From an uncultured Gammaproteobacteria bacterium (lineage in GTDB: Bacteria > Pseudomonadota > Gammaproteobacteria > SZUA-229): a stretch of DNA of 64,000 nucleotides. Location: assembly GCA_942492025.1 (NCBI GenBank), contig CALODJ010000003.1, positions 451,841-515,840 of the forward strand, given 5' to 3'. Below the pieces are notes generated by a model. That model saw only the letters and a list, made by a program, of their open reading frames with translations, ran no database searches and was not told where the DNA came from. The position numbers and the translations under genes were made by a program. This document shows positions 2,761 through 44,094 of the stretch, piece by piece; within the stretch, counting starts at the first letter, position 1, and each line of letters begins with the position of its first letter.

Positions 2761-5631
2761 ATGACCACCAAGATCAAACCTGGCATGCAGGAATTATGGG
2801 GCAGCTCTCAGCTGAATGGTGCGAGCGCGACCTGGTTAGAGTCACTCTATGAAGCCTATTTACGGAATCCCGCGACCGTCGATCTCGAATGGCGAAGTTT
2901 TTTCGACGATCTACCCACTGTAAAACCGCATGACGGCGGAAATGGTGCTGGCAGGGAGTTGCCGCATGACGAAATCAGAGACTATTTCAAAGCCATAGCC
3001 AATGAGCATCATGCGGTCCCGATAGCCACACCCAGTCATGACCTCGAGCTGGAACGCAAGCAGGTCCATGTGCTTCAATTGATCAATGCCTACCGTTTTC
3101 GTGGCCATCAACACGCGAATACCAATCCGCTCGGCAACGGGCAACAGGTCGATGTGCCCGAACTCGACATCGCATATCACCAGCTCAGCCAGGCCGATTT
3201 GAGTACAGTGTTCGAAACGGGGTCACTGGCCGGGCCGGAGACATTAACCCTCGGTGAGATCTACGGCAAGATCCGGGAAACCTATTGTGGGTCTATCGGT
3301 GCCGAGTACATGCACATCATGGAGACGGCGGAAAAACGCTGGATACAGCAACGACTTGAGCTGACCAGAGGCAGGATCGAATTGTCCTTTGCTGAAAAAA
3401 TAAATATTCTGCAACAACTCACCAATGCGGAAGGTCTGGAGACATACTTGCATACCAAGTATGTTGGCCAGAAACGATTTTCACTGGAAGGTGGAGAGTC
3501 ATTGATCCCTCTGCTGGATGAGCTTGTTATGCATGCCGGTGCTCAAGGTGTCAAGGAAGTTGTGATTGGTATGGCGCACCGTGGTCGCCTGAACGTACTC
3601 ATCAATATACTGGGCAAAACACCGGCCGAACTGTTTGCGGAATTCGAAGGTACCAAGGATATTCAGGAACTGACAGGTGATGTCAAATACCATCTTGGCT
3701 TTGCATCTAACATGCGGTCGCGCGGCGGCCCTGTTCATCTCGCGCTCGCCTTCAATCCTTCCCATCTTGAGATTGTGTCACCCGTAGTGGAAGGTTCGGT
3801 ACGCGCACGTCAGTGGCGTCGTGGTGATGCTGAAGGTGTTGAAGTCATACCCGTACAGATTCATGGTGATGCCGCCTTTTCAGGTCAGGGCGTGGTGATG
3901 GAATCACTGCAGATGTCACAATCCAGAGGATTCTCCACAAAAGGCACAATACACATCATCATCAACAACCAGATTGGCTTCACAACCAGCTATCAGAAAG
4001 ATGCACGCTCAACACACTACTGCACTGATGTTGCAAAAATGGTTGATGCGCCTATCTTTCATGTCAATGGTGATGATCCTGAAGCGATCATAATGATTAC
4101 CCGGCTTGCCATCGATTACCGTATGACCTTCAAGAAAGATGTCGTGATCGATATGGTTTGCTACCGGCGTCATGGTCATAATGAGGCAGACGAACCCAAG
4201 GCTACTCAGCCGATGATGTACAAAAAAATCGCCAGCCTGCCCACGACGCGTGCGATCTATGTGAAACAGCTTGTTGGAGAAGGTTTATTGCGGCAACATC
4301 AGGCTGATGAAGTTCAGATGAATGCGCGCAAGGCACTGGAGTCGGGACGATGTGTATTGCCACACAAGTTACCGAATGGCAGTCCTGATAAGACCATGCA
4401 CATGGACTGGAAACCATACACCAAGGCCTCTGTGCTGGAAGATGTTGAAACCGGTGTGCCAATAGAAACGATTCGTAAGCTGGCTGCGACCTTGCAGCAA
4501 TTGCCCGAGGGCTTTACCTTACAGGGCCGTGTTCAGAAAATCATGGACGATCGACACCGCATGACAGCAGGCGCTCTGCCGCTGGACTGGGGGTATGCAG
4601 AGATCATGGCATATGCGACACTGGTCAATGATGGCTATCCGGTCCGCCTGGCTGGCCAGGACAGCGGCCGTGGCACCTTCTTCCATCGGCATGCGGTACT
4701 GCATAATCAAACAGACGGGGTCGCCTTTGTGCCTTTGCGCAGCATCGGCAAGGGAAAGAACAACTTTCTCGTGATCGATTCGCTGTTGTCTGAGCTGGCC
4801 GTGCTCGCCTTCGAATATGGCTTTGCTACGGCAGATCCGAGTGTGCTGGCAATATGGGAAGCCCAGTTTGGTGATTTTGCCAATGGAGCGCAGGTGGTCG
4901 TTGATCAATTCATTTCGGCAGGTGAGCATAAATGGGGCAAAGCCTGTGGTCTGGTGATGCTGTTGCCGCATGGCTTTGAAGGACAGGGCGCCGAGCATTC
5001 GTCGGCACGCATTGAACGCTACCTGCAGCTCTGTTCAGGGAATAATATGCAGGTATGTGTGCCCAGTGCGCCTGCACAAATGTTTCATTTACTGCGCCGA
5101 CAGATGGTGCGCAATTGCAGAAAACCGCTGATCGTGATGACACCAAAGAGCCTGTTGCGACACAAGGAATGCACCAGCTCACTGGATGATCTCAGCACGG
5201 GTTACTTTCAGCGTGTATTACCCGAAGTGGATGATATTAATCCTGCGGAAGTGAAACATATCGTTCTTTGTAGTGGCAAGATATATTATGAGCTGTTGAG
5301 CAAGCGCAGAAGTGCGAATCATGCGGATTTTGCTATTTTAAGGGTAGAACAGTTGTATCCGTTTCCTGGGCCGGAACTGAATGAATTGCTCAAACCTTAC
5401 ACCCACGCCAAAGATTTACTCTGGGTTCAGGAAGAGCCAAAGAACCAGGGCGCCTGGGATTTTGTAAAACCACGGATACCGGCAATGTTAAATAAAGCGT
5501 GGAATTTGCATTATATTGGCCGCGAATCTTCAGCGGCTCCGGCCGTTGGATCGGCAAAACTGCACGCTGTGCAACAGCGCGAGCTGATTGACAGGGTTAT
5601 GCATTTTAACAACAAGAAGAATGAACAGTAG
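2761..5631 (+). CDS. sucA: 2-oxoglutarate dehydrogenase E1 component.
   Basis: It is 956 aa, with the characteristic N-terminus MQELWGSSQLNGASATWLESLYEAYL and ThDP-enzyme motifs. Confidence 0.95.
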   Translation: MTTKIKPGMQELWGSSQLNGASATWLESLYEAYLRNPATVDLEWRSFFDDLPTVKPHDGGNGAGRELPHDEIRDYFKAIANEHHAVPIATPSHDLELERKQVHVLQLINAYRFRGHQHANTNPLGNGQQVDVPELDIAYHQLSQADLSTVFETGSLAGPETLTLGEIYGKIRETYCGSIGAEYMHIMETAEKRWIQQRLELTRGRIELSFAEKINILQQLTNAEGLETYLHTKYVGQKRFSLEGGESLIPLLDELVMHAGAQGVKEVVIGMAHRGRLNVLINILGKTPAELFAEFEGTKDIQELTGDVKYHLGFASNMRSRGGPVHLALAFNPSHLEIVSPVVEGSVRARQWRRGDAEGVEVIPVQIHGDAAFSGQGVVMESLQMSQSRGFSTKGTIHIIINNQIGFTTSYQKDARSTHYCTDVAKMVDAPIFHVNGDDPEAIIMITRLAIDYRMTFKKDVVIDMVCYRRHGHNEADEPKATQPMMYKKIASLPTTRAIYVKQLVGEGLLRQHQADEVQMNARKALESGRCVLPHKLPNGSPDKTMHMDWKPYTKASVLEDVETGVPIETIRKLAATLQQLPEGFTLQGRVQKIMDDRHRMTAGALPLDWGYAEIMAYATLVNDGYPVRLAGQDSGRGTFFHRHAVLHNQTDGVAFVPLRSIGKGKNNFLVIDSLLSELAVLAFEYGFATADPSVLAIWEAQFGDFANGAQVVVDQFISAGEHKWGKACGLVMLLPHGFEGQGAEHSSARIERYLQLCSGNNMQVCVPSAPAQMFHLLRRQMVRNCRKPLIVMTPKSLLRHKECTSSLDDLSTGYFQRVLPEVDDINPAEVKHIVLCSGKIYYELLSKRRSANHADFAILRVEQLYPFPGPELNELLKPYTHAKDLLWVQEEPKNQGAWDFVKPRIPAMLNKAWNLHYIGRESSAAPAVGSAKLHAVQQRELIDRVMHFNNKKNEQ

Positions 5632-9867: not shown

Positions 9868-10736
9868 GCGTACTCGTCAACAAGAACACCCGGGTGATAT
9901 GCCAGGGCTTTACCGGCAAGCAGGGCACCTTCCATTCCGAGCAGGCAATCGCCTATGGCACACAGATGGTTGGCGGCGTTACCCCGGGCAAGGGTGGACA
10001 GACACATCTGGATTTGCCGGTATTCAACACGGTGCGTCAGGCGGTCGAGCAAACCGGGGCAACGGCTTCGGTGATTTATGTGCCTGCAGCCTTCTGCAAG
10101 GATTCCATGCTCGAGTCCATCGATGCCGGCATCGAACTGGTGGTGTGTATTACCGAAGGTGTTCCCACACTGGATATGCTGCAGGTAAAGATGGTTGCCG
10201 ACAGCGCTGGCGTGACCATCATCGGGCCCAACTGTCCCGGTATTATTACACCAGGCGAGTGCAAGATAGGCATCATGCCTGGCGCAATTCACAGCAAGGG
10301 CAAAGTCGGTGTGGTTTCGCGTTCGGGTACGCTCACCTATGAAGCGGTTAAGCAAACCAGCGATCCCGGTTATGGTCAGAGCACCTGTATTGGTATCGGT
10401 GGCGACCCGATTCCGGGCACCAGTTTCATCGATTGTCTGAAGCTGTTCGAAGCCGATGAACAAACCGAAGCCATATTGATGGTTGGCGAGATCGGCGGCA
10501 CCGCTGAAGAGGAAGCGGCCGAGTTCATTCAATCTGAAATCAGCAAGCCGGTCGCCGCCTTCATTGCCGGTGGCACGGCACCCAAGGGCAAGCGTATGGG
10601 TCACGCCGGGGCGATTATCGCTGGCGGTAAAGGAACGGCGGCAGATAAATTTGCCGCGCTGGAAAAAGCCGGTGTCACCACCGTGCGTTCACCGGCGGAG
10701 CTGGGTAAGGGTATCGCAGAGGCGGCGGGTTGGTAA
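9864..10736 (+). CDS. sucD: Succinyl-CoA ligase alpha subunit.
   Basis: [22 protein letters not shown] and the active-site region around GHAGAII. Confidence 0.95.
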
Positions 10737-10842
10737 AGAGTTATTCACCACAGAGGCACAGAGGACGCAAAGATCATTCTTGGGTCCGCAAAAGAACGCC
10801 AATCAACGCAAATAATAGTAGTGTTGAATCTGCAGTGACACC

Positions 10843-10918
10843 GTAGGGTGCGCCGTGCGCACCCTGTTGCCAAATTCTCACTCACCGGGCTGATTTCGGT
10901 GCGCACGGCGCACCCTAC
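10843..10918. repeat. REP-like palindromic element (GTAGGGTGCGCCGTGCGCACC ... GGTGCGCACGGCGCACCCTAC).
   Basis: A perfect inverted repeat lying between convergent genes. The same unit occurs at 16101-16176, at 16879-16945 and inside each MITE. Confidence 0.8.
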
Positions 10919-10947
10919 AAAACTTTAGTCCTATGCGTCTTTGCGGT

Positions 10948-11709
10948 TCAAATAATGCCTTCAAACCACGCCACGATTTGATCAGCAACGAACGCAGCGT
11001 CATCCTTGTTCGAGAGCAAGTGGTCTGCCTTGTCCAGCGTAATGATGCGTGATGGGCCTTTGGTCCATGCCTTGATCGCGTCAGCGTTGTCGCCATCAAC
11101 CAGCTCGTCGTGCAACACCTTGATAATCAGCACCGGTTTGTCCAGTAAGGCCAGGCGTTGCTGCATATCATACTGACGCAAGTCCTCGATAAACTGCGGT
11201 TCGATATCATAATGCCGACCTGCAACTTCGATGCTGGCGGCGATACCCTGTTCCAGCAGGGTCAATGCATGGCCAAAGTGATGCAGCACATGGGCGGGCT
11301 GGCTGGGCGAGGCAATGGTGACGATGGCCTTGACACTTTCGATATCGATGGCCGCTTCGAGCATGGCTGTGCCACCGAGACTGTGACCGATCAGTAGTGA
11401 CGGTGCGGCGTAGTGCTCGCGCAGATAGTCGACCGCCGCTTTCACATCGGCAACATCTGCTGTGAAATTGGACTGTGCAAAGTCACCCGCACTGTTACCG
11501 AGTCCGGTGAAATCGAAGCGAAGCACGGCAACCCCCTGCATGGCCAGCAGTCGGCTGATACGAAACACTGTGATGGTATCTTTGCTGCAGGTAAAACAAT
11601 GACTCGCAACGGCATAGGCCAGGGGTGTATCAACAGGGGATTCCAGCCTGGCATCCAGGGCGTGACCAGCACCGCCGATAAATCTTGCTTTCAGGCTTTG
11701 TGTTTTCAA
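10948..11709 (-). CDS. Alpha/beta-fold hydrolase (esterase/lipase family).
   Basis: GHSLGG nucleophile elbow and an HG-type oxyanion region. Confidence 0.75.
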   Translation of the reverse strand: MKTQSLKARFIGGAGHALDARLESPVDTPLAYAVASHCFTCSKDTITVFRISRLLAMQGVAVLRFDFTGLGNSAGDFAQSNFTADVADVKAAVDYLREHYAAPSLLIGHSLGGTAMLEAAIDIESVKAIVTIASPSQPAHVLHHFGHALTLLEQGIAASIEVAGRHYDIEPQFIEDLRQYDMQQRLALLDKPVLIIKVLHDELVDGDNADAIKAWTKGPSRIITLDKADHLLSNKDDAAFVADQIVAWFEGII

Positions 11710-11784
11710 AAAGCGTAGTATCCTGGGGGCATGACTACTTAGTCGTTAAAGCCTATTCTACGTGAGCAAACGCACGATAAGAAA

Positions 11785-12192
11785 GTGGATCGGAGACATC
11801 TAATGAGCCAGACAAGTTTACCCAACGACCGCATGCCCGTGTTGCGTGTGCCAGCCCGACCACGTGATGCCAACATGGGTGGCACGATCTTCGGTGGCTG
11901 GATCATGTCGCATGTCGACATCGCAGGCAGCATTCCTGCACTGGTGCGAGCCCGAGGTGCTGTGGTTACGCGGGCGGTGGATTCGTTTGAATTCAAAAAA
12001 CCGGTATACATCGGTGATCTGGTCAGTTGTTTTGCAGATGTGGTATCGACCGGTAAAACATCGATGAAGGTGAAGGTCGAGGTGTACGCCGAGCGTATGC
12101 ATCAAGGTGTGATGGATTGTGTAAAAGTGACCGAGGCAACACTGGTCTATGTGGCCATTGACGGGGAGGGAAGACCGAGGCCGCTGCCCTGA
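11785..12192 (+). CDS. yciA: Acyl-CoA thioester hydrolase, YciA-like (hotdog fold).
   Basis: RPRDANMGGTIFGGWIMSHVDIAGSIPA matches the YciA N-terminal consensus. Confidence 0.7.
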   Translation: MDRRHLMSQTSLPNDRMPVLRVPARPRDANMGGTIFGGWIMSHVDIAGSIPALVRARGAVVTRAVDSFEFKKPVYIGDLVSCFADVVSTGKTSMKVKVEVYAERMHQGVMDCVKVTEATLVYVAIDGEGRPRPLP

Positions 12193-16191: not shown

Positions 16192-16680
16192 CTATTGCCG
16201 CAATCGCCACGCAGGTCGGTTATCGTCGTCAATGAGTCTGTATCGGCGCAACCACGCAACCACATCCTCTGCATCCAGTTCAAACCAGGCCTGGCTCGAA
16301 CCCAGTCTGAATGAATAACCCCATTCATCCATATCACGGAACATGCGTTGCCTGCCCATTTCCGGGATATGATCTGACAACAGAATCTGCAAATAACAGA
16401 CACCGTTCTCTTCCTCGTAGTCACCGCCGGCATCGGTATCGAGCTTGTTCCTGCGATGCTGGTCCATGCAGATGTAGTGGCAGGCTTCATGCAGGGCGGA
16501 ATGCACCGGGGTGTCATTACGAACAAAAAGAATATTGCCGGCGAGGCCGGCTTCCGGTGGCCGCCAAAAACTGCCGGGGATGGGATTGTTCGCAGCAACC
16601 CCTTTCACCACCATGCCATAACGCTCGAGCAGGTGTTGAAGGGTGCCAGGATTAATTTGGTTATAAAGCAGAACAGGCAT
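16192..16680 (-). CDS. Hypothetical small protein with an HEXXH motif (putative zinc-dependent peptidase/hydrolase).
   Basis: HEACHYICMD in a 162-aa ORF. No family was assigned. Confidence 0.45.
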   Translation of the reverse strand: MPVLLYNQINPGTLQHLLERYGMVVKGVAANNPIPGSFWRPPEAGLAGNILFVRNDTPVHSALHEACHYICMDQHRRNKLDTDAGGDYEEENGVCYLQILLSDHIPEMGRQRMFRDMDEWGYSFRLGSSQAWFELDAEDVVAWLRRYRLIDDDNRPAWRLRQ

Positions 16681-17097: not shown

Positions 17098-17709
17098 TCA
17101 AATATATTTATGTTTTTTGAACTCTTCCAACATCGCATTCAGTGCGATGGCACGGTGGCTGATCGTGTTCTTGACTTCGAGTGGCAGTTCCCCACCCGAG
17201 CATTCGTGTGTGGGCACATAAAAAATCGGATCATAACCAAAACCGCCGTCACCTCGTGGTGCTTCCAGTATGCGGCCTTCCCAGCTGCCCTGGGTAATGA
17301 TGGGCACCGGGTCGGTGTGATCACGCATGAAAACGAGCAGGCATTGATAGCGTGCGGTGCGCTCTGCTTCGGCCACACCCTCGAGTTCCTTGAGTATTTT
17401 ATCGTTATTGTCCGTATCACTGGCATTCTCTCCGGCATAGCGCGCTGACCACACACCCGGTCGGGCGTGCAAGGCATCCACTTCGATCCCTGAGTCATCC
17501 GCAATCGCCGGTAAACCGGTGCACTCTGCCGCATGTCGCGCCTTGATGATTGCGTTTTCAACAAAGGTGGTTCCGGTCTCTGCTACATCAGGCACATTGA
17601 AATCTGACTGGGGCACGACCTCGATGCCACAATCGGCAAACAGTCTGTTGATTTCTCGAACCTTGCCGGCATTGCCGCTAGCAAGAACGATTTTATTCAA
17701 GGTAGTCAT
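17098..17709 (-). CDS. rdgB: Non-canonical purine NTP pyrophosphatase (dITP/XTPase, Ham1 family).
   Basis: [15 protein letters not shown]-terminus and an FGYDPIF motif. Confidence 0.9.
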
Positions 17710-18422
17710 GATTGAATCGCATCCTGTTGTGCTTGCAGAATTCTACCAATACCCTGCTTTGCCAGCGCCAGCATGGCGTTGAGTTCATCGATAGTAAACG
17801 CGTGGCCTTCTGCAGTACCCTGAATTTCGATAAAGGCGTCATTGCTGTTCATGACGACATTCATGTCTGTTTCTGCATTGGAGTCCTCCGCATAGTCAAG
17901 ATCGAGGATCGGTGTGCCTTCATAGATACCGACCGATACCGATGCGATCCGGTGATGCAAGGGGTCCTTGTCGAGCATCTTCTCCTGTTGCATGAACGTG
18001 ACGGCGTCATGCAGCGCGACCCAGGCACCGGATATGCTGGCCGTACGTGTACCTCCGTCAGCCTGCAGTACATCACAGTCGAGGCTGATGGTGTTTTCGC
18101 CTAGCGCTTCCATGTTGATACCGGCTCTCAACGATCGACCGATCAGGCGCTGGATCTCCATGGTGCGCCCGCCTTGTTTGCCGCGCGCGGCCTCGCGACC
18201 CATACGGCTGCCTGTCGAGCGTGGCAGCATGCCATATTCGGCCGTGACCCAGCCCCGGCCCTGACCACGCAGAAAACCGGGCACGCGGTCTTCGACGGAA
18301 GCGGTGCAAACGACCTTGGTGTCGCCAAATTCAACCAGAACCGAGCCTTCAGCATGTTTGGTGAAATTACGGGTTATCTTGATGTTACGCATTTCATCAG
18401 CGGCGCGCTTGCTCGGTCTCAT
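17706..18422 (-). CDS. rph: Ribonuclease PH.
   Basis: [37 protein letters not shown]. Its stop overlaps the rdgB start. Confidence 0.92.
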
Positions 18423-18526
18423 TCTGTTCTCCGTATCATTCAGTGCGGCGCATTATAACAACACGGCAAGATGAATGTGCGTGTTACAATGGCGCACGAT
18501 AAGGTTCAGTGTCAACGGGGTTGTCG

Positions 18527-19393
18527 ATGATAAAAAGTATGACTGCATTCGCGCGTGTGCAGAAGAGTGAAAAGTTTGGCACGCTGACCTGGGAGCTGAG
18601 ATCGGTCAACAGTCGTTATCTCGATATCAATTGCAGATTGCCGGAAGATTTCCGGGCTCAGGAAGGCCGTGTACGCGAGTGTATCAACACGCGCCTGCAG
18701 CGTGGCAAGATCGAATGTGGACTTCGATTCATGCCCGAGCTGGCCATTGAAACCGGGATCGAAGTCAATGCCGCTTTGGTCAAATCCCTGATCGACGCCT
18801 GCCAGCAAATCAATACCCGTTTACACCAGCCTTCGGAAATCAATCCGGTTGATATACTCAGCTGGCCCGGCGTGGTGGCAGAGCCGGAACAGGATTTCAA
18901 GGTCATATACGCAGTATCCGAGAAGCTGTTGCAACACGCGTTGGATGAGTTGGTCGCCAACAGGTTGCGTGAAGGCGAACGCATGCGTGAACTCATACAG
19001 AAGCGTTGCGCCAGCATGCAGCAAATTGTTGCTGATGTCAGACAGCAACTGCCGCAAATACAGCAACGCTATCGTGAAAAACTGACGGCCAGACTCGAAG
19101 AACTGAATACCGGTGTCGAACAGGATCGCCTGGAGCAGGAACTGGTGTTTCTCGCACAGAAGATGGACGTGGATGAAGAACTGGATCGCCTGGAAGCGCA
19201 CCTTGGGGAGCTTTGTGATGTACTCGATCGCGAAGAGGCGGTGGGAAGGCGGCTGGATTTTCTGATGCAGGAGCTGAACCGTGAAGCCAACACCCTGGGG
19301 TCAAAGTCGGCGGATATCTCCACCACCCAGGCATCGGTGGAACTGAAAGTATTGATCGAACAGATGCGCGAGCAGATTCAGAATATTGAGTGA
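18527..19393 (+). CDS. yicC: YicC-family stress-induced protein.
   Basis: MIKSMTAFAR N-terminus and a C-terminal DUF1732 region. Confidence 0.8.
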   Translation: MIKSMTAFARVQKSEKFGTLTWELRSVNSRYLDINCRLPEDFRAQEGRVRECINTRLQRGKIECGLRFMPELAIETGIEVNAALVKSLIDACQQINTRLHQPSEINPVDILSWPGVVAEPEQDFKVIYAVSEKLLQHALDELVANRLREGERMRELIQKRCASMQQIVADVRQQLPQIQQRYREKLTARLEELNTGVEQDRLEQELVFLAQKMDVDEELDRLEAHLGELCDVLDREEAVGRRLDFLMQELNREANTLGSKSADISTTQASVELKVLIEQMREQIQNIE

Positions 19394-19576
19394 TTGTTGT
19401 TGACGCGAAGGCGCGAAGACATAAATAGTACAGAACTTATGTGATAAGGTTTTGAGTCCGCAAGTGAACGCGAATGTTCGATGCTCTACAGGCGCTATGC
19501 TGGAGATAACGGCCATTGCATTTCCGGTTTTATGCTGCTCGCCTCCAACGTTATAGTTACGAGGTTCAAATACACC

Positions 19577-21469
19577 CTAACTTTTGTTTATAACCAGTCC
19601 GGTTGCCTTTTCCTCCGGAATCATTGTCAGTGCCTCCTCAACCACAGCTTGAGGTGTTTCGCCGGCTTCAACAACCAGGACAACCTGTCCCACCAGGCCT
19701 GCCAGGACAGGCGTCTCAGGTGTGCGCAATACGGGTGGCCCATCGAAAATAATCACGTGATCGGCATAACGCGAGGCCATTTCATCCACAAGGCTGGCCA
19801 TGCGTTGACTTGCTAACAACTCGGTAACATGCTCATGATGCTTCCCCGCTGAGAGCAGGCTCAAGCGTGGAATGTCTGTCCGTCGGATCACATCTGCAAC
19901 AGTAAGATTTTTGTCTTCAAGGACATCGACCAGACCTCTTTCTTCACCCAGATTCAATAGTTCGCTGACACCCTTTCTGGTGACATCACAATCCACCAGC
20001 AGAACGCTGTTGTCGCGCTCCTGTGCGATGGAAAGAGCAAGGTTGATGGAGGTGTGCGTTGTGCCTTCACCAGGCATTGAACTGGTTATAAGAATAAGGT
20101 TACCCCGATCTATCAAGGATGCGTTTTTACCGAATGCATTGGACAACAACGGTCTTTTGATACGGCGATATTCATCCGTGAAACCGGGATCGAGATTGCT
20201 ACCGGGTACCAGCATATTCTGTCTGCGTAACAACTCGAATACGGCGACACTGTCAGGACCTGGCGTGTCAGGACCACTTTTACCTTGCGCAGCATCTGCC
20301 GTTTGAAATAAGTTGGCCACTTGCCTGTTGGCTGCAGTGGGGCGTTTCCTGTTTCGCTCAGGAATCAATGCATCAGCGGGAGCTGCGACCTTTGGTGTTT
20401 TTATTTTCGACACCTTGTTGTCTGCACGCTTCAAAGCAACGCCCGTTGCCGTTGTTGTGGGATCTTCCGCCTGCCGTAAACGGGCATCGCCAGACACGGC
20501 GCCATCATTTTTTTGATCGGTGGCCAGAACGGCCTTATGAATGGTTTTTTTTTCAGCCGCTGGTTTCAAACCCTTTGTGCCGCCGCCAGGATTGATCCAC
20601 GGAAAAGTATCGTCATCCCTGCTGCTTGTGTTCTTTTTCTTGTTGGGTTTGACCAGAGGCAGGATACTGTTCTCCATACGCTCACTGATGACTTGCTCGA
20701 TCAAATTAGCATCGATGGTTTTGCATTGGTCGGCGAAGCCGTAAACCATTGCCGTATCGCAGAGCAGGTTGATCAAACGCGGTACGCCATTGCTGGATTC
20801 AGCGATTAACCTGCAGGCATCAGGAGTGAATATATCTTCTGTTGCACCCGCGGTGACCAAACGATGCTGAATGTAATGACAGGCCTCTGCAGTATTCAAC
20901 GCATCAAGATGAAAATCCACCGAGATACGCTGGGCGAACTGCTTCAGTTCCGGCTTCCTCAGTGTATCTTTCAGATCAGGCTGGCCAGCAAGAATAATCT
21001 GTAAAACCAGGTCCTTTTCTGAGTTGATATTCGAAATCATACGCAACTCTTCCAGAGTTGTCGCTGGCATGTTTTGTGCCTCGTCGACGATCAACAACAC
21101 GGTTTTGTTTTTGGCATACTGCTCAAGCAGGAAATCGACGAAACGCTGGTGCATCTCGACCTTGCTCAGGCCGGGCTCATGAATGCCATAAGCGGAAAGC
21201 ACCCAGTCAAGTAATTCACCGAATGACTGATGGGTATTGGTGATCATGCCAATCGTGATATCGTCTTCGAGGGAGGTTAGCAGCTTGCGTAGCAAGGTTG
21301 TTTTGCCGGCGCCAATCTCGCCGGTGATGACACAAAAACCCACGTTGTTCATCTGAGCGTACTCGAGCATGGTGAGTGCGATTCTGTGCTTCTTGCTCAG
21401 ATACAGAAATTCCGGGTCCGGCAATATCGAAAATGGCTTGGTTGTCAAGCCATAAAATGATTCATACAT
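19577..21469 (-). CDS. Fusion protein. The N-terminal part is an ExeA/GspA-like AAA+ ATPase. A low-complexity linker follows, and the C-terminal part is a BY-kinase/MinD-like P-loop domain with a degenerate Walker A.
   Basis: N-terminal GEIGAGKTTLL (Walker A) and LLIVDEAQNM (Walker B). C-terminal ITSSMPGEGTTHTS (the expected GEGKST lysine is absent), LLVDCDVTRKG and HVIIFDGPPV. Confidence 0.7.
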   Translation of the reverse strand: MYESFYGLTTKPFSILPDPEFLYLSKKHRIALTMLEYAQMNNVGFCVITGEIGAGKTTLLRKLLTSLEDDITIGMITNTHQSFGELLDWVLSAYGIHEPGLSKVEMHQRFVDFLLEQYAKNKTVLLIVDEAQNMPATTLEELRMISNINSEKDLVLQIILAGQPDLKDTLRKPELKQFAQRISVDFHLDALNTAEACHYIQHRLVTAGATEDIFTPDACRLIAESSNGVPRLINLLCDTAMVYGFADQCKTIDANLIEQVISERMENSILPLVKPNKKKNTSSRDDDTFPWINPGGGTKGLKPAAEKKTIHKAVLATDQKNDGAVSGDARLRQAEDPTTTATGVALKRADNKVSKIKTPKVAAPADALIPERNRKRPTAANRQVANLFQTADAAQGKSGPDTPGPDSVAVFELLRRQNMLVPGSNLDPGFTDEYRRIKRPLLSNAFGKNASLIDRGNLILITSSMPGEGTTHTSINLALSIAQERDNSVLLVDCDVTRKGVSELLNLGEERGLVDVLEDKNLTVADVIRRTDIPRLSLLSAGKHHEHVTELLASQRMASLVDEMASRYADHVIIFDGPPVLRTPETPVLAGLVGQVVLVVEAGETPQAVVEEALTMIPEEKATGLVINKS

Positions 21470-21995
21470 AAACTACACTACTCTGAAAATCCATTCGTCA
21501 TGCCATTACTCATGAAACATGCGTAGCTGTCGATCGGTTTTCGTTAATCATCGATCCGGTGCTACGCTTGGACCATTCCCGACCAGTCAGGATGTCATAT
21601 GTCCACTTGATCGGTCAGCCTTATCAGGCCGCTTTGCAGATGGCTTCCTCTTTCGCTCATAGACAACTTTAACCGGAATTCCGGGCCATATATCGGCATT
21701 CGACGAGAAATTCAGGCGTAACTGACCACGCAAACCACCTGACCTTTTGAACCCCGGTCACCGTGACCCGATTCAAAAGCACCGTCTTAGCGGGTACCCC
21801 AGCGTTTGCAACAGCCATTAGCATCGAGGCTCCATACACCGAGTTCATACCCGTCGCTTACGATCAAACATCGTCCACAGAAATGACAACCTATACCGTC
21901 TCTGGCCTTGCCATGGCCATTACCGGATATTGTCTCATCATGAATTTATTATACACCTGCGCTTGTGAAAAGGTGTGTTTCTTCACACTATTTAG

Positions 21996-22086
21996 CCCGC
22001 ATTTCTCACCAGGCGGCGTAGAAAACTGATATGGCATTGGCTATTCGGAGTAAAGCCAGGATGACACAAAATACAGTGTGTATTCC
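21996..22086. repeat. MITE fragment (left ~90 bp only).
   Basis: TA-GCCCGCATTTCTCACCAGGCGGCGT... matches the left end of the 30593 copy. Confidence 0.65.
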
Positions 22087-22128
22087 CGCCTGAGCAAATG
22101 GCATGGCCCGGCCTTACCCTTTTTTTCG

Positions 22129-24075
22129 TCAGTTGCCCGCTTGCAGACGAACGTCCCCTCTGGAACAGGCGATGGGTACTTCGAATATCTGGTCTTCCGG
22201 GAAAGACTGGGTCACGATCCAGATCTGGGTGATATCGTCGCTGAGTTCGGGTAACACCTGGATCGCCTTCCGCGTTCTTTTCTCATCGAAAAAGGCGAAC
22301 GGCTCATCCAGGAATACGAACTGCTGACTCTCCACATTGCGGTTTACCAGTTCTTGCGAGAGCGCCAGACGAACCGCCAGCATGATCTGGCGTTGGGTGC
22401 CGCTGGAGATCTCCTCCAGGTCCATGAAGTCCCTTTTTTCGTTCGAAAACACGCGCACGCTGAGGTCTTCGTCGATCTGCAGATGCTCGTATCGATCTTC
22501 CGTGAACAGCGGCAGGGTGTGGCCGACCAGGTCCCTCAGTTCTTGATTAAACCGTCGGGACAATTGGCGGATAGCCCCATGGAGCAAGTCGTTCGCCAGC
22601 TCGCGCAGCTGAATCCCGCGTTCGTATTCGCGCATGCTCTGCTCGAAACTTTCTTGCGAAAGCGTCAAGTTCTCTGCTGTTTTCAAGCGTTGTCTCTCTT
22701 CCCATATCGGTTGTTCCAATGCATCCATACGCTGTTTGAGATCATCCATCCGGTCCCGCATCCAATTCAGCTCCCTCCCGACGGCATCACGCACCTCGGC
22801 TGGCGCCGCCTCGGAGGATTCGATGCGTCTGCAAAGTGCGGCAATCTGTTGGTCGTCCAGACGTGGAGGCAGATTCGCTTCGGTGTCACCGCTTCCTGAT
22901 TCGCCTGAGTTGTGATGCGGTTCTTCTATCGTCGAATCTTCGCCAGATGTTGCTTCCCTGACGGTCGATTCACCCCCCGTTTGCATCGAATCGATGTCCA
23001 GGACTGGATCAGTCTGGCCGGCATCTGCCCGCAGTCTCATCAGTTTTTCGGCCAAAACGGGGGAGCCTCGTTGAAGCTTCGCAGCGCGGTTGTTCAGGGA
23101 GGATACCCGGGCCCAGAACAGTAGAAAAAGCACCACGAAACCTATACCCCCGTACAACAGCCAGGGAAGCTGGGCTTCACTCCATTGAGGGATCAGCCGA
23201 GAAAGTGTGTTGGTCAATCCCTGGACGTATTCATTCGCCGGCAGGTACGCTATGAGCACCCAGGCGCCCGTCAGAACCACCGCCAGACTCAAACTTAGAA
23301 ATCGCAGAAATCGAGCCCGGGCACGGCGACTTTCGGCTGTGCGAATCGCGGGCAACGCATCCTGATAGGCGATCGAAGCTTGTTCGATTTGGTCGGCCTG
23401 ATCCTTGATCTGCGCCGCGGATTGCCCCAGCTCGGCGTGTTCCTGCTGCATCGAAGGTAGGCGGTCGGGCTGGATGTTTAGATCCGCCAGCTCCTGCTCG
23501 GTTTCCTGGAGCTGAAGCCGGATTTTTTCCCGTTCTTCATGCTGCGCCTCGATCTCATCGTGGTATTCGTCAGACACCATTCGCAACGAGGTCAGACCAG
23601 CCATAGCCTTTACCGCATCGCTGTGTGGGTGGGGTGCAGTAATTTCGCGCTGTGCGAGATAAAAGGATTCGATAAATTCGTCGTACCCGTATCCCAGTAG
23701 ACCCTGGAGCGCTCTGTCTACGAATTCAACTCCGCGAGTAATTGGCAGGTCCTGCTCGCCGACACGGTTCAAGCGGGCTCCCTGGTTGCCATCTCGGTCG
23801 AAAAACCGGGTGATTTCATAGTGTTCACCGTCTCCGATTCGAAAGCGGAGCGTTGCGCTACAACGGGTCTCACCCCACCGAATCAGCTTGTCCAGTTCCT
23901 GACTGGTAAGAGAGAAGGTTCGGCCAAATAACGCAAAGCAGATGGTCTCTCCGATAGTGCTCTTGCCGGATTCGTTCAGGCCGTGGATGGCTATTAGCCC
24001 TTTTTCAGGAAGATTGTTCAGCTCAAGACTGGCATATTTGAGAATGTTTTCCGCTATCAAATCCGTGATAATCAT
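22129..24075 (-). CDS. SMC/SbcC/RecN-like ABC ATPase carrying a central transmembrane hairpin (a membrane-anchored SMC-like protein).
   Basis: Walker A GLNESGKST, Q-loop YLAQRE, signature-like ISSGTQRQ, Walker B FVFLDEPFAFFD, and long coiled-coil-like Q/E-rich arms. Two hydrophobic helices (LSLSLAVVLTGAWVLIAYL and LLYGGIGFVVLFLLFWA) sit where a hinge would be. Confidence 0.65.
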   Translation of the reverse strand: MIITDLIAENILKYASLELNNLPEKGLIAIHGLNESGKSTIGETICFALFGRTFSLTSQELDKLIRWGETRCSATLRFRIGDGEHYEITRFFDRDGNQGARLNRVGEQDLPITRGVEFVDRALQGLLGYGYDEFIESFYLAQREITAPHPHSDAVKAMAGLTSLRMVSDEYHDEIEAQHEEREKIRLQLQETEQELADLNIQPDRLPSMQQEHAELGQSAAQIKDQADQIEQASIAYQDALPAIRTAESRRARARFLRFLSLSLAVVLTGAWVLIAYLPANEYVQGLTNTLSRLIPQWSEAQLPWLLYGGIGFVVLFLLFWARVSSLNNRAAKLQRGSPVLAEKLMRLRADAGQTDPVLDIDSMQTGGESTVREATSGEDSTIEEPHHNSGESGSGDTEANLPPRLDDQQIAALCRRIESSEAAPAEVRDAVGRELNWMRDRMDDLKQRMDALEQPIWEERQRLKTAENLTLSQESFEQSMREYERGIQLRELANDLLHGAIRQLSRRFNQELRDLVGHTLPLFTEDRYEHLQIDEDLSVRVFSNEKRDFMDLEEISSGTQRQIMLAVRLALSQELVNRNVESQQFVFLDEPFAFFDEKRTRKAIQVLPELSDDITQIWIVTQSFPEDQIFEVPIACSRGDVRLQAGN

Positions 24076-24392
24076 GCGACGCCCCCTGTTTCTAACGTCT
24101 GGAGTCTGCGCACGGTCATTTCCACAGCTTGCTCAAACAACGCTTCGTCGAAGGCATCCCCCGAATTTCTGCGGTGATGGATCTCAGACTCGCAGTAGAT
24201 GGCGAATTCCCTGGATGCTTTTTTCAGTATCCCGGGGTCACCGGGGGTGGGTTCCTCTTGTTCGAAGCGCTCGATCACCGCTCCCGCCCGTTCGGTCGAC
24301 TCCGGGGCAGTCGCCTCGGTTTCCGCACTGACCAGGGACGCATCCTCCGGCGCGACACCGTTGGGAGACGTGACTTGTTGATCTTCGTTCAT
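24072..24392 (-). CDS. Small acidic hypothetical protein translationally coupled to the SMC-like ATPase.
   Basis: The ATGA stop/start overlap with the downstream gene, a GGAGAA RBS before MNEDQQ, and ~107 aa rich in E/D/A. Confidence 0.5.
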   Translation of the reverse strand: MNEDQQVTSPNGVAPEDASLVSAETEATAPESTERAGAVIERFEQEEPTPGDPGILKKASREFAIYCESEIHHRRNSGDAFDEALFEQAVEMTVRRLQTLETGGVA

Positions 24393-24866
24393 ATTGAGTT
24401 CTCCACTGTGTTGTTGGTCGCTCCCGGATACCCTGTGCCCGTCGAGCACCGAGCCAAGAGAGTCGTTCTTGATCCGTTACACAGTAGCAAAAAAAAGGAT
24501 GGAAACGAACCGGTGGTAGAACCCATTCGCCTATCCGGATAACCGCGGCCCCGTTCATCTGGTGCGAAATGCGGGCTGATTCGTGGAATCTATTAGAGGA
24601 CTACGCCATTCCCGGCCCAATGACGCTGGCCTGCTGTATGTATCGACTCCTGCGATGCAGAGCCGGCAGTAGCCGTAGAGCATTCCGCCGCGAATTCCTC
24701 ACACTATTGCGCGATATTCGCGGCGGAAACTGTTCTTTTGCCGAGATTTCTGTGTTACGTACGGTGTTCGTGCACCCTGTAGGTCTTCAAATACACGAGC
24801 GTTTGTTTGCGGACTGATGACGCCACCTGTATTAATGCTGCGCTGTTTACGTTTGAGCACCAAACA

Positions 24867-28357: not shown

Positions 28358-30592
28358 ATGAAAAAGCTGAAACTCGTTCTGAAAATTTTTGGCATTGTTG
28401 TCGTGCTTTTGCTGCTTGTTGTGGCAGCATTTGTTTTTACCTTCGACCCGAATAACTATAAAGATACCATCACCGCCCAGGTTGAAAAACAGACCGGGCG
28501 TGATTTTGAAATTGCGGGTGATATCCGCCTGTCAGTCTTTCCCTGGATTGGAATCAAGGTCGAAGATGTAAAACTGGCGAACGCAAAGGGTTTCAGTGAT
28601 GAGCCGTTTGCGCGAATGGCGCAGCTTGACGTCAAGGTCATGCTAATGCCCTTGTTGCGCAAAGAACTGCAAGTTGACAAGGTACGTCTGCATGGCCTGT
28701 TTGCTTCGCTGGAGGTCGATGAACAGGGCAACAACAACTGGTCGGATCTGGCCGGGCAGGAAGATGTCTCGCAACAGCCGCCCACACCAGAGCAGACAGT
28801 CGATGAGGGTGAACAGCCGCCGGCACTGGCAGCACTGGCCATCAATGGTGTTGAGTTGATTGATGCCTCTGTGAAGTGGACGGATCTGCAGAATAATGTG
28901 CACTCGCATTTGTCAGGATTCAGTCTGACCATGGGCGCTATTCGTTTCAATGAAGCGGTGGATATCGAATTAAATACCAGCGTTAAGCACAATGAGCCCG
29001 AACTTGATGCCCAGATCAATCTGACGACCCGGCTTACCTTCAACGAGGCGTTTACCAATGTGTTACTGGATGCATTAAAGCTGAAGGTAACAGCCAATGC
29101 ACCGTCGCTGTTCACCGAACAAGTGGACTTGCTGTTGCTGAGTAATATCAATATTGATGTCGATCAACAGGTTGCGGCATTGAATAACACCAGCGTATCG
29201 GCTATGGGTGTGACTTTATATGTCAACGTGGAAGTGGCCAATCTGGTATCAGAGCCGGTGATCAGTGGAAACGTTTACACGGACGACATCAACGCGCGTA
29301 TTCTGGCGGGCCGCCTGGGCATTGAACTACCGCCCATGGCCAGCGATAGCAGTATGACAAAAATCGCCTATGCGTCCACATTCAAGGCGAGTGCCAATAT
29401 GATAGAGATGAACGCTATCAAGCTGACGCTGGATGACACGGATATCACAGGCTGGTTACATGTGCCCGATGTGGCACAACCGACGGTGCGTTACAAACTG
29501 CACATGAGTTCGATCGATGCTGATGCCTACCTGCCGCCGGTCAGCGATGTCGCAGCAGGGGAGCCAATCCCGGCTGGCCCAGTTGAGGGTACGGCGGCCG
29601 TTGACTCCAGCGCAGATCCGGACGATGCTGAAATCGAGTTACCGGTCGAATTGCTGCGCAAACTCAATATGGAAGGCCAGCTGAACATGGACAGTGTCAC
29701 AGTCAACAAAATACCGCTCACTGCTATACTGGTCGAAACGCAGGCCAAAGCAGGCTTGATACGGATTGATCCACTGCAACTGAAAACACTCGATGGCAAT
29801 GTTAACGGCAGCGTGATGATGAATGTGAAAGGCGAGACGCCCGCTTATTCGGTTGGCCTGAAAGCCTCGAACATACGCCCGGGACCGGTTGTCAACCCGA
29901 TGCTTGTAGGGGTGTTTGGAGAGCAGGAAGTGACCCTGGAGGGTGCGGCCAACATGCTCGCGGACATCAACACCAGCGGTACGCGCGTCTCGCAGTTAAA
30001 GCAGGTGGCCAAAGGCAAGCTGACGTTCGATATGGCCAAGACCGTGCTGCAGGGCGTCGACTTCGAACACTTTGCGCGTAATGTGGTGGCTGATTATCTG
30101 GCCACAAAGAGTCTGCCTGTACCCGCCGACTGGCGTGGCAGCCTTAATCCGGAAACGAAAACCGCGTTTAACCGTGCCCATGCCAGTGCCGTGGTGGCGA
30201 ACGGTGACATCACCAATCCTGACTTGATTCTGGATTCGACCCGACTCAAGGTCACCGGCCAGGGTGTGGTAAATATCATGCGCAACGATATGGATTATCG
30301 CGCACTGGTGGATATCAAACCACCACGCCGGCAAACGACCGCAGATAAGTTACTGGATCAACCGATAGCGGTGCATATTCACGGTCCATTCGAGCTGTTG
30401 GCATACGATGTCGACACCAGCCAGATCGCCAGTTCCTTGTCCAGTCTGCTCGAGGCCGAGGCCAAGGCCAAAATCAACAAAGAGTTAGAGGAAGAAAAAG
30501 CCAAGCTGAAGGAAAAAGCTAAACAGGAAGAGGACGAGATCAAACAAAAACTCGAGGACAAATTAAAGGACAAGTTAAAAGGTCTGTTCTAG
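28358..30592 (+). CDS. asmA: AsmA-family outer-membrane assembly protein with a K/E-rich C-terminal tail.
   Basis: N-terminal TM anchor followed by the AsmA N-domain (ITAQVEKQTGRDFEIAGDIRLSVFPWIGIKVEDVKL), for a total of 744 aa. Confidence 0.8.
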   Translation: MKKLKLVLKIFGIVVVLLLLVVAAFVFTFDPNNYKDTITAQVEKQTGRDFEIAGDIRLSVFPWIGIKVEDVKLANAKGFSDEPFARMAQLDVKVMLMPLLRKELQVDKVRLHGLFASLEVDEQGNNNWSDLAGQEDVSQQPPTPEQTVDEGEQPPALAALAINGVELIDASVKWTDLQNNVHSHLSGFSLTMGAIRFNEAVDIELNTSVKHNEPELDAQINLTTRLTFNEAFTNVLLDALKLKVTANAPSLFTEQVDLLLLSNINIDVDQQVAALNNTSVSAMGVTLYVNVEVANLVSEPVISGNVYTDDINARILAGRLGIELPPMASDSSMTKIAYASTFKASANMIEMNAIKLTLDDTDITGWLHVPDVAQPTVRYKLHMSSIDADAYLPPVSDVAAGEPIPAGPVEGTAAVDSSADPDDAEIELPVELLRKLNMEGQLNMDSVTVNKIPLTAILVETQAKAGLIRIDPLQLKTLDGNVNGSVMMNVKGETPAYSVGLKASNIRPGPVVNPMLVGVFGEQEVTLEGAANMLADINTSGTRVSQLKQVAKGKLTFDMAKTVLQGVDFEHFARNVVADYLATKSLPVPADWRGSLNPETKTAFNRAHASAVVANGDITNPDLILDSTRLKVTGQGVVNIMRNDMDYRALVDIKPPRRQTTADKLLDQPIAVHIHGPFELLAYDVDTSQIASSLSSLLEAEAKAKINKELEEEKAKLKEKAKQEEDEIKQKLEDKLKDKLKGLF

Positions 30593-30899
30593 CCCGCATT
30601 TCTCACCAGGCGGCGTGGAATACTGGTAAGACATTGGTTTTTTGGAGTGAAGCTCGGATGATTAAAAATACAGTGTGTTATTCAAGCCTGCCTATCACGG
30701 TTCAGGCTGGTCTTGGTTTGCATGAGATCGTAGGGTGCGCTGTGCGCACCGTGAATCTTCAGTGTGCTGGGCTGTTTCGGTGCGCACGGCGCACCCTACG
30801 GTCGCTTCGCCCAAGCTGTTGCTACGCTTTTCGCTCCAGAGCGGCGCTTTCGAGCACGAATCCTGCGCCTGCTCCCGTGATCCTGGTGAGAAATGCGGG
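30593..30899. repeat. MITE, full copy (307 bp), flanked by cTA ... TAg. It ends 4 bp upstream of the mutY start codon.
   Basis: Perfect 18-bp TIRs CCCGCATTTCTCACCAGG / CCTGGTGAGAAATGCGGG and an internal REP palindrome. It is near-identical to 184-489. Confidence 0.8.
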
Positions 30900-30903
30900 C
30901 TAG

Positions 30904-42807: not shown

Positions 42808-44094
42808 ATGAGTTCTGGCATGGTACCGCCGTCACAACCACCGGCTCCCGGGGGTACACCGCCATTGGATTCGATCGGGCGCGCCGGCGGAATCATCCAC
42901 CTGTTCGCACAACACCCCGTAGCGGCCAACCTGCTGATGGCGACAATGATCATCCTCGGCGCCTTCAGTCTGACTCAACTGAACAAACAATTTTTCCCCA
43001 ATTTTGCGCTCGACTATATCACGGTCAACGTCATCTGGCGGGGCGCCAGCGCCGAAGATGTGGAGCGTTCGATTACGGTTCCATTGGAACAGGCATTACG
43101 GACACTCGATGGTAAAAAGGAAATGACATCGACTTCGACGCGCGGCCTTAGCGCTATCGTCATCGAATACGAAGAAAACACTGATATGGGCATCGCGCTG
43201 GACGAGGTCAAGCAGTTCGTTTCCAATATTCGCAACTTGCCCTCCGACGCCGAAGACCCGATCGTCACCCGGATCGCGCGTTATGAAGCGGTCGCAACCA
43301 TCATCTTGGCTGCCGAAGGCGAACTCGATGAGCTACGCCCGCTGGCCCACCAATTTGAACGCGAGCTGCTCGATCGTGGTAGTGCACGAGTGGACTTTGC
43401 CGGCATGCCCGAGCAGGAAATTGCGATCGAGGTCAGTGCAAAACAAATCCAGCAGCTCGGCCTGTCGTTAAACCAAATCGGCGATCGTATTATCAGTCAA
43501 AGTCAGGATATACCGGCGGGTACAGTCGCGAGAGTGAAGCTGCGCGTGAAGTCCGTGGGTTGCAGCGTAAACGTGATGTTCAGGAATTCGCCTCGCTGGA
43601 CCTGCTGACGACCGCAAGTGGTAGCAAACTCACGCTGAATGATATCGCCGAGATAAAACGGCGACCCAAAGAAAACCAGGTGGAAATTTTCTACCAGGGC
43701 AAACCGGCCGTTCTGATGAACCTGCAGCGGACCGATAGCACAGATGCCCTGGTATTGGCCGATATCATGCAACAGTGGCTGACCGAAACTCGCGAGACTC
43801 TAACACCATTTATCGAATTGGTCGTGTTCGACGAGAAGTACGCGTTGATACAGCAGCGCATCGACCTGTTGGTCAAGAACGGTATCTCCGGACTGGTGCT
43901 GGCGATCTTATACATTTTCCTGAATGGACGCGTAGCGTTCTGGGTCGCCATCGGCATACCCGCATCTTTTCCAGGTGCGCTGGCCGTGCTGTATTTCTTC
44001 GGCGGCAGCATTAACATGATCAGCCTGTTCGCGCTGATCATGACGCTAGGCATCATCGTCGATGATGCCATCGTCGTCGGTGGGGATGCACTGA
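42808..44094 (+). pseudogene. RND-family (AcrB/CzcA-like) inner-membrane transporter, N-terminal ~45% only. It has one internal frameshift and is truncated at an IS91-fragment junction.
   Basis: IIHLFAQHPVAANLLMATMIILGAFSL..., a TM1-periplasmic loop pattern and a second ORF piece at 43560-44094. Homology stops at ...VVGGDALTHYQ. Confidence 0.7.

Follow-up and report, generated by a model that had tools for sequence, protein, structure and literature searches.

A conserved pair of genes encodes an ATPase and a small partner protein

We analyzed a 64,000-nucleotide stretch of contig CALODJ010000003.1 from an uncultured gammaproteobacterium (hereafter, the window), which carries a block of three minus-strand genes that an initial annotation, made from the letters alone, had proposed as a candidate membrane-associated NTPase system. 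An open reading frame (ORF) listing confirmed all three: a small gene (24072..24392), a gene for a 648-aa ATPase (22129..24075) and a gene for a 630-aa protein, gene 3 (19577-21469), which encodes a fusion of ExeA-type and BY-kinase-like modules. The ATPase is a Rad50-like ATP-binding cassette (ABC) protein, with a split head, antiparallel helical arms and, at the apex of the arms, a predicted transmembrane (TM) hairpin. The small gene likely starts at the ATG at position 24392, which has a GGAG ribosome-binding site 8 nt upstream and yields 107 aa; an alternative GTG start at 24449 (24072-24449, minus strand), which would yield 125 aa, is possible. The small gene and the ATPase gene overlap in the sequence ATGA, so that both the 107-aa reading and the translational coupling described in the initial annotation hold. 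The intergenic gap between the ATPase gene and gene 3, given there as about 660 bp, measures 659 bp and does contain a fragment of a miniature inverted-repeat transposable element (MITE)-like repeat.

We compared the block with 95 related loci, 80 of them from GTDB species representatives and 15 fetched by exact protein look-up. In 95/95 of these loci, the ATPase gene is immediately preceded by a homologous small ORF, and the 4-nt ATGA overlap was found in 89/89 loci scored; the six further loci again show the 4-nt overlap, except for single loci with a 1-nt overlap, an 11-nt overlap and a gap of 12 nt. The small ORF and the ATPase gene stay adjacent even where ATPase identity has dropped to ~31%, and they do so in no fewer than six different neighborhoods. 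Such constant adjacency and translational coupling, maintained across very different genomic surroundings, is strong evidence for a joint function of the two proteins. The comparison of gene neighborhoods that the initial annotation had proposed thus bore out the small protein-ATPase pair but not gene 3, which is absent in 90 loci. The pair, at 22129-24392, is a conserved chromosomal two-gene module that does not include gene 3.

The small protein is canonically 63-65 aa long, and the lineage of the window adds an acidic N-terminal extension. Its conserved core of ~50 aa comprises two helices with the pattern F..YC..E.ERR.NSG..FDE..F..A.EM.L..L, which can still be recognized next to ATPases of only 31-33% identity. 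A single-sequence AlphaFold (AF2) model of the protein, with a predicted local distance difference test (pLDDT) score of 66, places helices at residues 31-45, 53-77 and 83-101. The small protein had no match in Pfam, NCBIfam, PADLOC or PDB. The best match of any kind, to cullin-3 (E 0.045), was judged to be due to chance.

The ATPase has a Rad50-type head

Pfam assigned the domains AAA_23, SMC_N and SbcC_Walker_B to the ATPase, all of which are generic for Rad50/SMC heads. NCBIfam models of archaeal Rad50 equivalogs scored 64-68 bits against cut-offs of ~1000 (best, 68.3 vs 1087), and the sbcc model scored 31.2 bits against a cut-off of 478.5. When a family profile built from an alignment of 52 ATPase members was compared with the PDB, the top solved relatives were the archaeal Rad50 heads 5f3w and 3aux, at E ~5e-37 (M. 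jannaschii Rad50, E 5e-37). An AF2 model based on the same alignment had a mean pLDDT of 82.4, with most of the head above 90, and its helices span residues 161-199, 205-277, 282-294 (a short one), 300-334, 337-354, 408-419 and 425-525, the last of which returns to the head. Foldseek searches with this model retrieved Rad50/SbcC heads first (3av0, 5dny and 7yzp, ~1e-16), followed by SMC, MukB and LmuB.

The nucleotide-binding motifs could be placed by alignment, all of them on the minus strand. Walker A, GLNESGKS (residues 32-39; 23959..23982), has G32, N34, E35, G37 and K38 invariant in the 52 sequences. The signature motif is a variant, SSGTQRQ (22387..22407), where the Rad50 counterpart is LSGGE, and the Thr at the position of Rad50's second Gly is a family-wide departure. 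Walker B, FVFLDE (22303..22320), is followed by a D-loop, PFAFFD. At the position of the Rad50 H-loop His, the sequences QVILVSH and QMIIITH of P. furiosus and M. jannaschii Rad50 align to QIWIVTQ, which ends in Gln623 (22207..22209). Across the family, the Walker A pattern GxNExGK, the Q-loop Gln142, SSGTQRQ, the Walker B LDE, the D-loop FAxxD and Gln623 itself are all invariant. The initial annotation had credited the ATPase with every head motif; this holds for Walker A, the Q-loop, the signature-like SSGTQRQ and Walker B, but not for the H-loop, whose His is an invariant Gln. The alignments show that the head is of the Rad50 type and that, judged by its motifs, it would carry all the residues required for ATP binding and sandwich dimerization.

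Outside the motifs, strong conservation is also seen at residues 493-535, where the C-terminal arm has its base. An acidic linker at residues 356-402 (22870..23010, minus strand) varies in length and is predicted to be disordered, with pLDDT <50, a top-residue frequency of 0.18 and 36% gaps. No CxxC zinc hook occurs anywhere in the ATPase sequence, and Pfam gave no SMC_hinge match; the same model does recognize a true SMC protein encoded in neighboring loci. The YhaN-type Pfam model AAA_27 scored 17.6 bits, below its cut-off of 22, and covered the P-loop only.

A predicted transmembrane hairpin occupies the apex of the arms

Two strongly hydrophobic segments lie where an SMC protein would have its hinge. 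Using a Kyte-Doolittle 19-residue mean >1.6 as the criterion for a TM segment, we predicted a first helix at residues 256-278 (23242..23310, minus strand) and a second at residues 302-325 (23101..23172, minus strand), separated by a loop of residues 279-301 (23173..23241, minus strand) that is predicted to be periplasmic. The first helix is preceded by the basic sequence RRARAR, and the AF2 helix at 205-277 runs from the arm directly into it; the second is supported by hydropathy, the AF2 model and the charge of its flanks. Both segments are found at the same alignment position in 52/52 members and in nine more distant relatives that were checked. The 15 residues before the first helix are net basic in 52/52 members and the 15 residues after the second in 46/52, while the intervening loop of ~22 residues is net acidic in 52/52. 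Basic flanks around an acidic loop make up a positive-inside pattern, which predicts that both termini are cytoplasmic and the loop is periplasmic.

The hairpin segments are better conserved than the arms that carry them (top-residue frequency, 0.50 vs 0.42), and the conserved residues include W272, P279, P296, W298 and Y308, of which P279, P296 and W298 are in the loop. ATPases of the family fall into two size classes, of ~600-670 aa and ~750 aa, and the longer class has ~100 extra residues directly before the first TM helix; the counterpart of this region on the returning arm of the short class is the poorly conserved, disordered acidic linker. One distant member of 881 aa (P0233, L096 2533-5178) is fused at its C-terminus to DUF7662. 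Together, hydropathy, flank charge and the AF2 model support a predicted transmembrane hairpin in the hinge/hook position of the ATPase arms, as the initial annotation had suggested from the two hydrophobic helices.

The pair is a chromosomal feature of sulfur-oxidizing Gammaproteobacteria

The ATPase family comprises 329 clusters (50% identity) at E<1e-30 among 1.84 billion representatives, and relatives occur in 392 GTDB species. Every named member is gammaproteobacterial, from Sedimenticola, Candidatus Thiodiazotropha, symbionts of tubeworms and clams, Thiolapillus and Chromatiales, and the cultured members are Sedimenticola selenatireducens, S. thiotaurini and Thiolapillus brandeum. The host of the window is itself marked as a sulfur oxidizer by aprA, which lies farther along the window. 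Database labels of the members read only 'AAA family ATPase', 'SMC family ATPase' or 'exonuclease SbcC'. The pair is found on the chromosomes of sulfur-oxidizing Gammaproteobacteria.

The genes around the pair differ between lineages. In Sedimenticolaceae, an RNB exoribonuclease gene lies upstream (35 loci) and an HrpB helicase gene downstream (47 loci), with the HrpB start often 0-200 nt past the ATPase stop. Elsewhere, the pair is preceded by trxA-rho, with rho immediately upstream (L092, L093), followed by lysA-dapF-xerC (L086), accompanied by genes for DAHP synthase and dksA (L088) or by SOR and a downstream rsmE (L096), or found near an SLT-domain gene (L095). In the window, its neighborhood includes fkpA and yicC, and yicC and rph are two and three genes from the pair (region 17706-19393). 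Eight loci (L044, L053, L062, L063, L067, L079, L080 and L088) also carry, two to three genes away from the pair, a canonical smc gene (1168 aa, with hinge) in an FGGY-kinase...smc arrangement; these genomes therefore also own a normal SMC protein.

No family member turned up when 72,556 plasmids and 50,697 phages were searched at the protein level and IMG/VR contigs were scanned. ATPase identity follows taxonomic distance, at 87, 81 and 78% for the nearest metagenome-assembled genomes (MAGs), ~55% for Sedimenticola and ~46% for Thiodiazotropha. The housekeeping contexts, the absence from plasmids, phages and IMG/VR, and an identity that tracks taxonomy add up to the profile of a vertically inherited housekeeping module and not that of a defense island.

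Gene 3 is an unrelated, lineage-specific fusion

Gene 3 is built from two modules, as the initial annotation had recognized and as NCBIfam and PDB alignments bear out. Residues 1-375 (20345..21469, minus strand) form an ExeA/GspA-type AAA+ module with a low-complexity linker, and residues 429-630 (19577..20185, minus strand) form a BY-kinase-type P-loop domain. The matches are to families typical of PEP-CTERM loci, also as had been noted: TIGR03015 over residues 1-263, with 282.5 bits that fall below its cut-off of 324.5, and TIGR03018 over residues 429-628, with 242.1 bits that exceed its cut-off of 230.65. The first module is 77% identical over residues 1-375 to ExeA-like relatives of ~600 aa (P0378), after which the similarity ends abruptly; beyond this point the relatives carry one TM segment and a charged coiled coil, and they have a conserved neighborhood of their own, with radical SAM, Memo, AMMECR1 and DsrC genes. 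For the C-terminal domain, the top PDB match was VpsO (6u1q, 1.5e-21), in which PGEGKT is aligned to PGEGTT of gene 3. The domain also aligns to BceF, Wzc and CapB, and its Walker A' (VDCD) and Walker B (IIFDGPP) motifs are intact. The loss of the P-loop lysine and the lack of a tyrosine cluster, both reported in the initial annotation, were confirmed: Walker A reads GEGTT, and no Tyr occurs in the last 30 residues of the protein, which ends right past the P-loop domain.

From these features, gene 3 had been proposed to be a pseudo-ATPase or adaptor, a proposal that is weakened by the sister species. The codon for T470 (20060-20062) is ACA, a single A-to-C change away from AAA (Lys), and the orthologue in the sister species (L094 5170-7059; 89% identity in the fusion, 87% in the ATPase) keeps the Lys, encoded by AAA. 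Thr470 was found in the window species and its three conspecific MAGs, and the Lys-to-Thr change is private to that species.

The gene order in the sister species is fkpA-small gene-ATPase gene-fusion gene-yicC. Gene 3 stands beside the pair only in this and the window species, which are also the only ones in which the fused ExeA/BY-kinase architecture was seen; none of the other 90 loci checked has it there, those of the next relatives, with ATPases 81% and 78% identical, included. For the third gene, co-occurrence with the pair in related genomes is thus essentially lacking, and the trio proposed in the initial annotation does not hold as one system. The abrupt loss of ExeA-like similarity and the restricted adjacency point to a recent chimera that was placed beside the pair by rearrangement, in which an ExeA-like AAA+ protein would have lost its own membrane/coiled-coil tail and gained a BY-kinase domain. 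Gene 3 is a lineage-specific fusion unrelated to the pair.

Two observations concern the source of this gene. In a related locus (L091), the ExeA-like parent of gene 3 (10001-11803) lies ~6 kb upstream of sucA (18114-20981). In the window, sucA (2761-5631) has a MITE fragment upstream of it (181-280), and gene 3 lies 17 kb off, beside another fragment. The position of the parent near sucA and the presence of MITE fragments at both window sites hint at a repeat-mediated relocation of gene 3.

Genomic setting and other features of the window

The initial annotation had found no recognizable pathway context for the block, but its flanks are made up of ordinary housekeeping genes, with sucAB-lpd-sucCD, fadL, a lipase gene, rdgB, rph and yicC on one side and fkpA, degP, moaE/D/C, asmA and mutY on the other. 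The genes are identical in three conspecific MAGs (GCA_049670005, GCA_049668745 and GCA_049668145). The guanine-plus-cytosine (GC) content of the ATPase gene, which had been described as higher than the core, is ordinary (0.553 vs 0.539 +/- 0.032 for 19 other genes of the window), and no tRNA or Rfam element was found near the block; a signal of horizontal transfer was rejected on these two grounds. A scan for promoters and terminators gave counts not above those for shuffled sequence.

The MITE-like repeat is present as a full copy of ~313 nt between asmA and mutY (30590-30902), with 21-nt terminal inverted repeats and 21-nt inverted matches at 162-182 and 30882-30902. Partial copies of ~100 nt lie upstream of sucA (162-280) and in the 659-bp gap (21993-22092), the latter outside the module; the copy in the gap is 81-83% identical to 181-280 and 30590-30690. 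Two overlapping plus-strand ORFs (42808-43608 and 43560-44243) cover positions 3-219 and 234-404, respectively, of the ~1009 in a profile for RND efflux permeases, and together (42808-44243) look like a frameshifted, truncated RND permease pseudogene. An IS66-family transposase fragment (50495-51214) and a group II intron reverse transcriptase/maturase (51204-52925) abut on the minus strand. The MITEs, the RND pseudogene and the IS66/group II intron region suggest that mobile elements are active in this genome and that it has undergone some decay. Beside rdgB lies a conserved 162-aa ORF (16192-16680, minus strand) without a Pfam match; the gene calls of the source MAGs and of the sister species include it as well.

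The pair differs from described SMC-like systems

Of anything solved, Rad50/SbcC heads are closest to the split ABC head of the ATPase, by sequence and by fold. As in those proteins, antiparallel helical arms leave the head, and Walker A, the Q-loop, Walker B and the D-loop are kept. The ATPase nevertheless scores far under every Rad50/SbcC equivalog cut-off, has a predicted TM hairpin at its apex instead of a CxxC zinc hook, and has arms that are short, at about 90-200 residues. Gln takes the place of the H-loop His, and the signature is SSGTQ instead of SGGE/Q. No Mre11/SbcD gene lies nearby in the 95 loci; the partner is instead a helical protein of ~65 aa.

SbcE (YhaN) of B. subtilis is a protein of 963 aa and the only described precedent that we found for a hydrophobic apex. 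It is an SMC/SbcC-like protein that forms polar foci at the site of DNA uptake and is paired with SbcF (YhaO), an Mre11-like nuclease; between its arms, in place of a hook or hinge, lies a unique central domain that is hydrophobic and insoluble (PMC2811018). A membrane span of the SbcE central domain was not shown in that study, and the protein differs from the ATPase in its ~300-aa arms, its occurrence in Firmicutes and its nuclease partner, where the pair has no SbcD/SbcF-like neighbor. The similarity between SbcE and the ATPase, compared by published description and the Pfam model, is weak (AAA_27 below its cut-off).

Lamassu systems, LmuB-LmuC(-LmuA), share with the pair the combination of a hinge-less SMC-like ATPase and a small accessory protein, and give weak matches in hidden Markov model and fold searches. 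Unlike Lamassu, however, the pair has no effector gene, is not mobile, occupies housekeeping contexts and has a predicted TM apex; neither LmuA nor LmuC was matched, and the small protein is unlike any PADLOC model. With SMC-kleisin complexes (Smc-ScpAB and MukBEF), the ATPase shares an ABC head, an antiparallel coiled coil and the logic of apical dimerization, but the pair lacks a hinge domain and kleisin or KITE genes, its arms are far shorter, and its hosts already encode a canonical SMC protein. Judged by the features read from its sequences, the pair would fall outside the Rad50/SbcC, SMC and Lamassu groups, failing tests for a hook, Mre11/SbcD, a hinge, a kleisin, an effector and mobility. 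We found no curated family, solved structure or paper describing the ATPase/small-protein family in the libraries searched, and full-text literature gave no description of a transmembrane Rad50/SMC-like family, the SbcE central domain being closest.

The similarities of gene 3 are of a different kind. Its N-terminal part resembles ExeA/GspA proteins, being 77% identical to ExeA-like ones, and its C-terminal domain aligns with the BY-kinases VpsO, Wzc and CapB and keeps Walker A' and Walker B. The fusion differs from both groups in that the modules are joined in one protein, with no TM or Wzz-type activator part, no tyrosine tail and Thr for the Walker A Lys; it differs from XrtA/PEP-CTERM systems in that no such locus was seen among the large ORFs scanned in the window.

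A membrane-tethered clamp as the proposed function

We propose that the product of the pair is a Rad50-type clamp, gated by ATP and tethered to the membrane, in which the small protein is a regulatory subunit, and that gene 3 is an unrelated chimeric neighbor. We give this reading as a whole a probability of about 45%. In this scheme, the arms of the ATPase would end in a hairpin in the inner membrane, with both halves of the head in the cytoplasm and the ~22-residue loop in the periplasm. Two hairpin-anchored protomers would engage their heads around two ATP molecules, as in Rad50/SMC proteins, and thereby close off a space between the membrane, both arms and the heads; the hairpins may pack as a four-helix 'membrane hinge'. 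A cytoplasmic polymer would be held or sensed at the membrane, most plausibly a nucleic acid, because the characterized relatives of this head all act on DNA. The small protein would dock onto the arm base or the head, as Mre11 Rad50-binding helices or kleisin helices do, and gate the cycle; by analogy with the Rad50-binding helices of Mre11, it is plausible that its site is the conserved base of the C-terminal arm (~493-535). The change of the H-loop His to Gln suggests slow hydrolysis, which would suit a long-lived tether or switch and not a fast motor.

Several observations weigh against a clamp on nucleic acid. The neighborhood clusters contain no conserved nuclease near the pair, and tblastn with gammaproteobacterial SbcD gave no match at E<=0.01 in the window or the 95 loci (1.4 Mb), though a partner may be encoded elsewhere in the genome. 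No kleisin-like or DNA-binding partner gene is conserved nearby. The only domain fusion found among the long members, that with DUF7662, offers no clue to a substrate. Lastly, the ATPases are acidic throughout, heads included (pI 4.5-5.4; head net charge -17), which does not favor nucleic-acid binding, although many SMC-type proteins are likewise acidic overall.

Two of these points, the uniform acidity and the lack of a conserved DNA-related partner, would fit another mode of action, in which head engagement is relayed via the arms to the hairpin and the periplasmic loop and acts on an envelope partner, as in MacB, FtsEX or LolCDE, without any nucleic acid. The conserved residues W272, P279, P296, W298 and Y308 also exceed the needs of a passive anchor. 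We consider such envelope-directed mechanotransmission unlikely, however, given that the loop has only ~22 residues, that the neighborhoods hold no conserved gene for a partner in the periplasm or membrane, that the head is specifically Rad50-like and not transporter-like, and that the ~100-residue variation in arm length between subfamilies fits a tether better than a rigid rod.

A clamp that serves membrane-proximal RNA metabolism (degradation, helicase action or termination) instead of DNA has a still lower standing, and we regard it as improbable. It would account for the recurrence of RNB, HrpB, rho and rsmE beside the pair across lineages, with yicC and rph near it in the window, and B. 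subtilis yhaN (sbcE) likewise adjoins an exoribonuclease gene, yhaM (PMC2811018). However, this neighbor pattern was drawn post hoc, without comparison to a background rate, the synteny in Sedimenticolaceae may just reflect shared descent, and RNA-free contexts exist in the lysA-dapF-xerC, DAHP synthase and SLT-domain loci. An action on RNA is not known for any Rad50/SMC-type ATPase.

The initial annotation had also raised a Lamassu- or Wadjet-like defense module. In such a module, directed against phages or plasmids, the ATPase would serve as the sensor of foreign DNA and the TM hairpin as an effector that disrupts the membrane. A small protein next to an SMC-like ATPase does resemble LmuC and LmuB, PADLOC gave weak matches to mad3 (E 4e-22) and LmuB (E 3e-11, 41.5 bits), and Foldseek found LmuB structures at ~4e-12. 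These matches are limited to the generic ABC head, though, for which Rad50 scores better, and neither an LmuA-type effector nor defense genes were seen among the neighbors. With housekeeping surroundings in every lineage examined, no member in the plasmid, phage and IMG/VR collections, an identity that declines with taxonomic distance and an ordinary GC content, a role in defense appears very improbable.

The remaining proposal of the initial annotation, a three-gene secretion or polysaccharide-export machine of the PEP-CTERM/exopolysaccharide (EPS) type, could draw on the TIGR03015 and TIGR03018 matches and on the common strand of the three genes, but it is largely refuted by synteny and we give it next to no credence, since gene 3 adjoins the pair in two species only, is separated from the ATPase gene by a gap with a repeat fragment, and has parents in a different neighborhood, and since a scan of large ORFs across the 64-kb window turned up no exosortase, PEP-CTERM, Wza/Wzx, EPS or glycosyltransferase genes. 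Overall, what the initial annotation observed at this locus is partly confirmed, and its interpretation is partly supported.

In the current view, Rad50/SMC-type ATPases are soluble machines, with arms that come together in a zinc hook or hinge, and the architecture of the pair is unusual in this respect. The label 'exonuclease SbcC' carried by some ATPase members is probably misleading, and the label 'XrtA-associated tyrosine autokinase' of gene 3 stands on a chimeric orphan and does not count as a sign of a PEP-CTERM system. A more far-reaching form of the clamp proposal, which we put forward tentatively, is that the family represents a new SMC/Rad50-like class in which a membrane hairpin replaces the hinge or hook, so that an ATP-gated ring permanently stitched to the inner membrane would tether chromosomal DNA or another nucleic acid to the envelope, as a housekeeping function in sulfur oxidizers that include clam and tubeworm symbionts. 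If the membrane-hairpin apex is real, it would be a new architectural solution, in which the ring is closed by the membrane itself, and the two-protein module would offer a simple model for studying how the engagement of the heads is linked to events at the opposite end of the arms. With cultured members and many chemosynthetic symbionts among its hosts, the family is open to experiment.

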